Positions 43,601-44,405 of a stretch of 64,000 nt of DNA are shown in pieces. Origin of the DNA: an uncultured Chloroflexia bacterium (lineage in GTDB: Bacteria > Chloroflexota > Dehalococcoidia > DSTF01 > JALHUB01); the NCBI GenBank assembly GCA_963703345.1, contig OY969814.1:1961130-2025129 (forward strand), in the 5' to 3' direction. A program made the translations under genes and the position numbers. Numbering within the stretch: the first letter of the stretch is position 1; every line of letters begins with the position of its first letter. The notes below the pieces were generated by a model. The model was given only the letters and a program-made list of their open reading frames with translations. It searched no databases and had not been told where the DNA came from.

Positions 43601-43667
43601 CCTGTGCCTTCGATTCGCGGTCCGGCCGTTGTCGTGTAACAATCGCTCGGATTGAGGGCAAGAACCC

Positions 43668-43695
43668 TTGACAACTTGGCGCGGCGGACTATAAT
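43668..43695 (+). promoter_or_regulatory. perfect-consensus sigma70 promoter TTGACA-N16-TATAAT
   Basis: cTTGACAacttggcgcggcggacTATAATgagg, read directly. Confidence 0.55.
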
Positions 43696-43701
43696 GAGGT
43701 C

Positions 43702-43780
43702 GCTGGACCCCCTGAGAATGCGTAGCAATCTCAGGCGATAAGCCTCAACGGGTTGCTTTGCAACCCGTTGCGCTATTTCC
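43702..43780 (+). ncRNA. putative ~75-nt small RNA with two hairpins downstream of the consensus promoter, antisense-adjacent to the NYN gene
   Basis: CTGAGA-atgcgtagcaa-TCTCAG (43715-43737) and CAACGGGTTGC-ttt-GCAACCCGTTG (43747-43771), then gcgctatttcc; no ORF. Confidence 0.35.
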
Positions 43781-44303
43781 AGCACCCCTTCAGGAACGTC
43801 TTATCGATTCGAATTGCCTTGTCGGCGACGTCGCGCAGGTGCTGCGACGACCAGGCGTCGCCGAAGAGCGCTACTTCCACGTGCCTGCCGGTATCCTTCA
43901 CCGCCTGGAGAGCGTCGGCGAAGTCATTGTCGCCGCTGACGAGGACGGCTACGTCGTAGAGATTGTGGTAGGCGTGCTGTTGGATGTCGGTGGCGATCTT
44001 TACGTCGATGCCTTTCTCGTAGGCAGGCTCGGTGGGCCAATTGCGATAGACGAGGCGTCCGAGGCGAACTTCCAGGTAGGGAATGCGGCGCATTCGGTTG
44101 AAGAAGGTCTGCTGGTCCTTGTAGCGCTCGGGCTCTTTCGTGTGGTCGACAGGCGCGTTGTAATAGTAGACCCGGATTAGCTGGCGCTTGCCGGCGAGCT
44201 TCTTGGTGAAGGCTTCGAAATCGAGATTGGTGTAGCCGTAGATCGACTTGATGGAGTGGTAGACGTTGCTGCCGTCGATGTAGACCATGACCCGATCGGG
44301 CAT
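43773..44303 (-). CDS. NYN-domain (LabA-like PIN) protein
   Basis: MVYIDGSNVYHS...AVLVSGDNDFADALQAV is the NYN/LabA signature. Confidence 0.7.
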   Translation of the reverse strand: MPDRVMVYIDGSNVYHSIKSIYGYTNLDFEAFTKKLAGKRQLIRVYYYNAPVDHTKEPERYKDQQTFFNRMRRIPYLEVRLGRLVYRNWPTEPAYEKGIDVKIATDIQQHAYHNLYDVAVLVSGDNDFADALQAVKDTGRHVEVALFGDAWSSQHLRDVADKAIRIDKTFLKGCWK

Positions 44304-44405
44304 AAGCTACCTCTGATATAAATCTTCTGATGCTAGTATATGTTAGTCAACATTGGGGCGCCAGCCAGGGCGGGCATCCGCCAAGGGCGTACTCCTACGA
44401 ATCGC

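Follow-up and report, generated by a model that had tools for sequence, protein, structure and literature searches.

A predicted small RNA gene of the window (the whole 64-kb stretch of DNA analysed here) belongs to a new RNA family that is uncatalogued in Rfam and, judging from its conservation, is probably the dedicated partner, and possibly the RNA antitoxin, of the NYN nuclease encoded beside it. The promoter and two-hairpin element of this family was found next to an NYN gene in about 45 distinct loci, in Chloroflexota, Coatesbacteria, Aminicenantes and three methanogen-related archaeal lineages, and the remaining neighbours of these loci all vary. The initial annotation had put forward a consensus promoter driving an independent small-RNA gene tied to NYN, and had named conservation in relatives and a covariance-model search of Rfam as checks. 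The former bore the proposal out, in that promoter, hairpins and adjacency to NYN are kept in dozens of loci and the stems covary; the latter was run and matched no family.

The predicted RNA gene and its promoter

The RNA gene occupies a gap of 172 bp (about 170 bp had been reported) between the start of an endonuclease IV-type gene (nfo; AP_endonuc_2; likely start 43600, ATG at 43600-43598) and the stop codon of the NYN gene (43773-43775), both of which are on the minus strand. The perfect sigma70 consensus noted earlier on the plus strand, with its 16-nt spacer, was confirmed: the 12/12 match at 43668-43695 is the sole exact TTGACA-N15-19-TATAAT in the window, and any such match was found in 0 of 100 dinucleotide shuffles. 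The RNA is predicted to start at about 43701-43702, because this lies at the usual 6-7 nt from the -10 box and at the 5′ edge of the covariance-model match (Table 1). Of the 22 convergent genome loci examined for it, 21 have a TTGAC(A/C/T) box at an equal distance from the RNA. The predicted transcript does reach the NYN stop codon, as had been suggested, and overlaps the gene there by about 4 nt; so short an overlap, together with the position of the RNA upstream of NYN and on its strand in most lineages, speaks against the cis-antisense role that had been offered for it.

The region upstream of NYN itself (44304-44350, minus strand) is AT-rich, with a local GC content of 52% compared with about 67% around it. 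It contains a TTGACT box at 44350-44345 (minus strand), without a convincing -10 box at the right spacing.

Table 1. Features of the RNA-NYN locus, in window coordinates
Feature	Position	Strand	Remark
-35 box TTGACA	43668-43673	+	box of the RNA gene; c directly 5′
-10 box TATAAT	43690-43695	+	16-nt spacer from the -35 box
Predicted NYN-associated small RNA, ~76 nt, two ~35-nt units	43701-43776	+	match of covariance model R1
Unit 1 C-tract CCCCC	43708-43712	+	columns nearly invariant in alignments A2 and A5
Hairpin 1, CCUGAGA-A-UGC / GUA / GCA-A-UCUCAGG	43711-43735	+	covariation of helix 1
Single-stranded linker and start of unit 2 (CGAUAAGCCU)	43736-43745	+	conserved columns in A5
Hairpin 2, 11-bp perfect stem, UUGC/GCAA top, UUU loop	43746-43770	+	covariation of helix 3
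NYN nuclease gene (PF01936, COG1432/LabA-like), 176 aa	43773-44303	-	convergent with the RNA gene

Structure and covariation of the RNA

The RNA is made of units of about 35 nt, in each of which a C-rich single-stranded tract, often anti-Shine-Dalgarno-like (e.g., CCUCCCC), precedes a hairpin whose UUGC/GCAA top is conserved; two units are present per RNA, and sometimes three (L019, L102 and L126). Both hairpins of the earlier description were recovered. The CTGAGA/TCTCAG core of hairpin 1 (43713-43718 and 43730-43735) is extended by CC/GG, so that the last two C of the unit 1 C-tract pair with the GG at 43734-43735, and an inner UGC/GCA stem follows beyond an A.A mismatch. Hairpin 2 (CAACGGGTTGC-TTT-GCAACCCGTTG in the DNA, CAACGGGUUGC-UUU-GCAACCCGUUG in the RNA) is perfect over 11 bp and ends 2 nt short of the NYN stop codon. 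It is likely the terminator of the RNA, and, being palindromic, it doubles as the 3′ hairpin of the NYN mRNA in convergent loci; the U-tract that follows it in the window is weak (CGCUAUUUC), and a terminator scan made no call there.

The window RNA matches covariance model R1 with 83.6 bits (E = 8e-21), and the 84-nt stretch 43702-43785 folds with -43.3 kcal/mol compared with -21.4 ± 3.1 for shuffles (z = -7.0). An outer stem in the single-sequence fold (GCUGGA/UCCAGC) was rejected as probably lying outside the RNA, since its 3′ half uses NYN codons (C-W-K) and it is not retained in relatives. The two units of the window are identical at 17 of 35 positions, which is no better than shuffles (z = -0.9). 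L027, L028 and L113 have near-identical units in direct repeat, with an identity of 28-30/35, and the repeats of L113 were called by TRF with a period of 35, 2.0 copies and 85% matches.

Covariation was followed in two alignments. In A2, a MAFFT alignment of 18 sequences in which 22 pairs were assessed, compensatory double changes were seen in 12 of the 22 pairs and 93.4% of the cells were paired, compared with 29-43% when the 3′ partners were slid. In A5, which contains 33 sequences from all lineages and leans towards the structure because it was fitted to model R1, such changes were seen in 19 of the 22 pairs, and 95.5% of the cells were paired compared with 30-47% in the slid controls. Within A5, 8 of the 9 pairs of helix 1 had changed on both sides (93.5% of cells paired) and 10 of the 11 pairs of helix 3 had compensatory changes (97.8%). 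Conservation at the level of sequence is found in the C-tract before each hairpin, in an A-U in each single-stranded stretch, including the linker, where A5 keeps the pattern A-U-N-A ... CC, and in the top four base pairs of both hairpins (UUGC...GCAA). A small ORF (MRSNLRR on the plus strand, or a 62-aa ORF on the minus strand) was considered as a substitute for the RNA and ruled out by the stem covariation and by frame-breaking indels in the loop of hairpin 1, which amount to +5 to +8 nt in L002 and L011. The element thus shows compensatory substitutions without a conserved reading frame, the mark of a structured RNA.

A palindromic hairpin that abuts a stop codon might be taken for a mere bidirectional terminator of NYN that happens to lie next to a promoter-like sequence, with no RNA product. 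This explanation is excluded: promoter, hairpin 1, linker and C-tracts are all conserved with covariation across phyla, the 12/12 promoter match had no counterpart among the shuffles, and the element also occurs upstream of NYN, where termination of NYN is impossible.

Searched at the gathering score, Rfam 15 reported two tRNAs in the whole window and nothing at the RNA locus; at E ≤ 10 the RNA region gave a chance match to chrB-a (14 bits against a 44-bit threshold), and eight relatives matched no Rfam family. A tRNA/tmRNA scan found nothing at the RNA locus, and neither an NYN-associated RNA nor a type III system built on NYN turned up in full-text literature searches.

Linkage to NYN and its two layouts

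A genome scan with the NYN protein gave 29 loci, most of them in Dehalococcoidia/Chloroflexota MAGs, which places the window in that group, the others being from Aminicenantes (one), Deltaproteobacteria (one), an unclassified bacterium (one) and Coatesbacteria (two). Down to about 55% NYN identity, the same arrangement follows the NYN stop in all of these loci except L012, L013 and L024, the last of which has a cut contig. In order, it comprises a TTGACA box, a -10 box 15-19 nt beyond it, the C-tract, hairpin 1, a GG-YR-A-U-N-A...CC linker, hairpin 2 and a U-rich tail. Every locus with an NYN at least 87% identical has the RNA adjoining it, and nfo as well. The RNA also lies beside NYN in more than 20 more distant lineages without nfo, the hydrolase or other neighbours seen in the window, which are confined to these closest relatives; nfo, which the initial annotation had used to frame the locus, is therefore of no further relevance. 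Elsewhere among the convergent loci the neighbours change and the RNA remains a few nucleotides from the NYN stop.

When about 0.7 Mb was searched on both strands with model R1, all forward-strand matches with E < 1e-6 fell 0-45 nt from an end of NYN, except in L001 and L022, which have small duplications between NYN and the RNA, and none lay away from any NYN gene. Weaker opposite-strand matches at the RNA sites arise because the hairpins are palindromic. The duplications (L001:585-857 and L022:4529-4625, among the closest relatives, both with an NYN 98% identical) are one or two extra units of 100-145 bp between the NYN stop and the RNA terminator. At its end each unit repeats the final nine NYN codons and the stop codon, and within it lie a GGGTTGAAACCC hairpin and a TTGACC box. 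The units could have arisen by tandem duplication of the RNA gene and the 3′ end of NYN, or be att-like duplications.

In the window the RNA gene is convergent with NYN, with its own promoter and a terminator that abuts the NYN stop codon. In distant lineages the RNA instead precedes NYN by 10-45 nt on the same strand. This upstream layout was found in L023 (Aminicenantes), L027, L028 and L029 (the latter two Coatesbacteria), L098, L101, L107 and L113-L125, among which are Methanophagales (L116-118), Methanoregula (L119-121) and a third archaeal group (L122-125), and in the IMG/VR contigs L127-129. The bacterial RNAs of this layout are preceded by a TTGACA-17-TATAAT-like promoter, the archaeal ones by a TATA-like box about 30 nt before the RNA. 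Hairpin 2 with its U-tract was called terminator-like in all three upstream-layout loci scanned (L113, L098 and L027), 10-30 nt before the NYN start, and in the bacterial loci the terminator is followed by the Shine-Dalgarno sequence and start codon of NYN, with no space for a second promoter.

Among 80 metagenome loci found with the NYN alignment, the RNA was present in 12, a low count because 58 of the RNA-less loci belong to one derived Dehalococcoidia clade that the scan oversampled. In a neighbour-joining tree of 103 NYN proteins, the deep-branching lineages have the upstream layout in 10 of 10 cases (L101 was confirmed with filters off) and most other Chloroflexota branches have the convergent one. 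The linkage of RNA and NYN is on these grounds most simply read as ancestral; the RNA gene would then have been inverted once, in Chloroflexota, and its adjacency to NYN lost a few times, at the large Dehalococcoidia clade, at L104-L109, at L012 and at L013/L033. Within about 3 kb of NYN, the RNA is absent from the 58-locus clade, a smaller clade, L012, L013 and L033; there, either NYN is tolerated without a linked RNA or the RNA is elsewhere in the genome. In the loci read from the 58-locus clade (L036-L095), NYN has a conserved promoter of its own (TCGCAATTT...TATAAT), and a radical-SAM gene (MGWDE...IALIYPNSYYVGMS) follows on the same strand, usually 10-40 nt past the NYN stop.

An RNA that comes 10-45 nt before the NYN start, with no space for a second promoter in the deep-branching lineages, could also be NYN's own operator or substrate. 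Binding or cleavage of the hairpins would then set the NYN level, like in the RNase E and RNase III leaders; the upstream layout would act in cis on read-through transcripts, and the window copy would be a decoy or the shared 3′ hairpin of the NYN mRNA. The sequence-conserved hairpin tops, which suggest a protein recognition site, are consistent with such a role, and so are the use of hairpin 2 as the 3′ end of the NYN mRNA in convergent loci and the inheritance of NYN in Dehalococcoidia, which looks vertical. A cis leader, however, fails to explain why a full consensus promoter was kept after the inversion in more than 25 convergent lineages, and a strong terminator before NYN and a duplicated unit are superfluous for a simple operator. 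We consider this explanation unlikely, if by no means negligible.

The NYN nuclease

The protein encoded by the window gene matches Pfam PF01936 with 96.2 bits (gathering cut-off 24.2, E = 3.3e-27), and its acidic residues D10, D100, D125 and D127 are invariant among 103 homologues, so that the nuclease active site is intact. A look-up of the exact protein sequence in the assembly index gave no entry. The subfamily carries the signature IDGSN.YH ... YYYNAPVD ... SGDxDF ... C-terminal GCW(K/R). NYN proteins from loci without the RNA keep all the acidic active-site residues and differ at D53 (mostly G) and S123 (mostly A). Across a class, NYN proteins are 55-65% identical, a degree of conservation that looks more like that of a housekeeping gene than that of a selfish toxin. 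The Coatesbacteria-type proteins (L027, L028 and L113) have a zinc-ribbon-like CPEC...CPKC insertion between window residues 91 and 92, which is missing from the Chloroflexota and archaeal ones.

The ToxN, CptN and TenpN families were not matched by NYN, for which Pfam, NCBIfam and PADLOC gave only NYN/HEC-09. The PADLOC profile HEC-09 (PDLC04163), which has no curated cut-off, matches the window protein over positions 2-179 of 203 with 74.8 bits (E = 1.7e-21), and the NYN proteins score 75-85 bits with it over nearly the whole length.

Genomic context

The neighbours in the window (endonuclease IV, an alpha/beta hydrolase, an LPG-synthase-like protein and an acyl-CoA dehydrogenase) do not form a defence island. 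In Coatesbacteria (CP070755.1; L028:1923-5937 and L029), RNA and NYN stand between an N6_Mtase ORF and a Type_ISP_C ORF, in two copies about 0.4 Mb apart on one chromosome; the cassette is placed as if it had been inserted into a single restriction-modification gene. The cassette comes after a Type ISP-like gene in an archaeon (L122), and lies within the pyruvate:ferredoxin oxidoreductase (POR) operon in L113-115.

Distant NYN genes (about 28% identical) are also carried by small enterobacterial plasmids, pKFu019_3 of E. coli (L110:1290-1458) and pKp_Goe_641-3 of Klebsiella (L111:1270-1497). They are preceded by short direct repeats (two GAGCTACGGCTC-like copies and two copies of GCGATTAAGTTACGC, respectively) and by a strong terminator abutting the NYN start, with a divergent HTH gene alongside. 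Model R1 gave weak matches of at most 14 bits at these plasmid loci, which share the order RNA-terminator-NYN with a different upstream repeat RNA.

Proposed function

The reading that we favour, with slightly less than even confidence, is by analogy with known systems that the RNA is a partner or inhibitor of the NYN RNase in the manner of a type III RNA antitoxin. A structured RNA of about 75 nt, predicted to be independently transcribed and strongly expressed, is co-inherited with one subfamily of NYN (PIN-like) ribonucleases in Bacteria and Archaea. Each of its units, in which a hairpin with a UUGC/GCAA top comes after a single-stranded A/U-then-C-rich tract, would serve as a binding or substrate-mimic site for NYN, and the RNA, if abundant, would keep NYN bound in a ribonucleoprotein, inactive or redirected, much as the RNA antitoxin does in a type III toxin-antitoxin or abortive-infection module. 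In the presumed ancestral layout, one promoter would drive the RNA, the terminator would stop most transcripts and read-through would supply NYN. In the Chloroflexota lineage of the window, the RNA gene would have been inverted with its consensus promoter kept, and its terminator hairpin would now be shared tail-to-tail with NYN. That the pair survived this inversion together with the consensus promoter of the RNA, the repeated unit design and the sequence-conserved hairpin tops all suggest that the RNA is recognised by a protein and works in trans, on NYN or together with it; the presumably abundant repeat RNA, the terminator-limited nuclease and the cassette-like distribution are what suggest the type III analogy.

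Several observations count against this partner or antitoxin role. The window RNA gene converges with NYN instead of preceding it, its units have diverged and its U-tract is weak. The main evidence against a strict toxin-antitoxin pair is the large clade without a linked RNA, which argues against an obligatory cis-linked antitoxin, together with the housekeeping-like conservation of NYN. NYN is, moreover, unrelated to ToxN-type toxins, and the HEC-09 prototype did not protect against phages in the single test that has been published. The original suggestion of an RNA antitoxin or regulator of NYN accordingly stands in part, supported by the type III layout of many relatives and weakened by the large clade in which the RNA is missing within 3 kb.

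The nearly invariant C-tract ahead of each hairpin invites a comparison with trans-acting base-pairing sRNAs of the RsaE/RoxS manner, in which C-rich tracts occlude the ribosome-binding sites of the targets; NYN would then degrade the duplexes or process the sRNA. In several upstream-layout lineages the single-stranded tract reads ACCUCCCC or GAUCACCUCCCC, an anti-Shine-Dalgarno-like sequence, and an own promoter and terminator are typical of stand-alone sRNAs. Pairing with the translation-initiation region of NYN nevertheless stayed at the level of shuffled sequences in 16 convergent loci (z from -1.3 to +0.8), two of the C residues in the first tract form pairs at the hairpin base, and the conserved UUGC/GCAA tops would have no role in seed pairing. 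As no Rfam sRNA family was matched and a tight linkage to one gene across two domains of life would be unusual for a global sRNA, this explanation appears quite unlikely.

The same tracts bear on the idea that the RNA forms part of an NYN ribonucleoprotein, as a structural or targeting subunit; it could, for instance, mimic the 3′ end of 16S rRNA (helix 45 followed by GGAUCACCUCC). Such an RNA would regulate a nuclease acting on small-subunit rRNA or guide NYN to its targets. The order hairpin, GG, (U)AAUAACCUCCCC in L027, L028 and L113, and GAUCACCUCCCC at the 5′ end of the L113 RNA, do resemble the 16S rRNA end. The resemblance is short, though, and weaker in the window (GACCCCC and AAGCCUC), and simpler explanations exist for C-rich tracts. 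A role of bacterial NYN proteins in tRNA/rRNA processing, which would suit this idea, has been proposed from gene neighbourhoods in a 2017 classification of the PIN superfamily (PMC5499597). We hold such a subunit to be very improbable.

If NYN does have a dedicated RNA partner, several consequences would follow. NYN/COG1432 nucleases are very common in prokaryotes, and the 2017 classification lists their function as unknown, with an RNA partner going unmentioned in its available part (PMC5499597). A covarying RNA shared from methanogen relatives to Chloroflexota would offer the first concrete handle on what one NYN subfamily recognises, and a ready ligand or substrate for NYN biochemistry. 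It adds a family that is absent from Rfam, and suggests that an upstream and a convergent placement of the RNA relative to the nuclease gene are both workable for one RNA-protein pair, and that the logic of type III-like RNA antitoxins may extend beyond ToxN-type toxins.

Comparison with known systems

With the LabA-like NYN proteins (PF01936, COG1432; PDB 2qip) the window protein shares the domain and the acidic active-site residues. With sRNAs of the RsaE/RoxS type the RNA shares its short, stand-alone nature, repeated unpaired C-rich motifs, hairpins and a terminator. It differs from them in its conserved stem tops, in its strict linkage to one nuclease gene, and in giving neither an Rfam match nor a pairing signal with the ribosome-binding site of NYN.

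HEC-09 has been described as an NYN protein embedded in Hma defence systems, and its prototype gave no defence against the phages tested; in the available part of the preprint it is a single protein gene and an RNA is unmentioned (bioRxiv 10.1101/2024.01.29.577857). The present family resembles it in that two relatives (L028/L029 and L122) lie in or beside Type ISP/MmeI-like methylase genes. It differs in that the prototype, WP_005744958.1 of Pseudomonas amygdali, comes from another NYN subfamily (YVDGFN...), and the window gene is not embedded in an Hma or other multi-gene defence system.

Type III toxin-antitoxin systems are defined by the succession of promoter, repeats, terminator and toxin (PMC5086642). 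The window pair differs from them in its RNA gene, which is inverted and has a promoter of its own instead of lying in tandem upstream on the strand of the toxin, and in its nuclease, which is NYN/PIN-like and not ToxN-like. The units number merely two or three and are often diverged from each other, and many NYN orthologues have no linked RNA. The units of ToxI form pseudoknots, whereas those of the NYN-associated RNA are simple hairpins with a conserved top. In type III systems the toxic endoribonuclease cuts its repeat RNA into units, by which it is then bound and inhibited; on the side of NYN, the trait that can be matched to this is the intact set of acidic residues. The window pair is outside the ToxIN, CptIN and TenpIN families, because the nuclease fold differs and because the orientation and the unit similarity in the window depart from the type III definition. 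The likeness to these three families lies in the combination of an RNA of repeated units of about 35 nt (36 nt in ToxI) with an endoribonuclease gene, in the behaviour of the RNA-NYN pair as a cassette that enters unrelated or defence-gene contexts, and in the deep-branching relatives, in which a single promoter, repeats, a Rho-independent terminator and the nuclease gene follow one another; the repeat array itself is present in relatives, as tandem repeats in L113 and in the upstream, same-strand position. A bolder proposal, which we judge somewhat unlikely, is that NYN and its two-unit RNA form a new and ancient class of RNA-protein toxin-antitoxin or defence system that is spread across Bacteria and Archaea, in effect a fourth family of type III in which the toxin is PIN-like. 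The RNA units would mimic the natural substrate of the nuclease, for which the 16S rRNA 3′ end with its anti-Shine-Dalgarno sequence is a possibility. If this were true, the published HEC-09 candidate would call for a second look that takes in any RNA encoded upstream of it.
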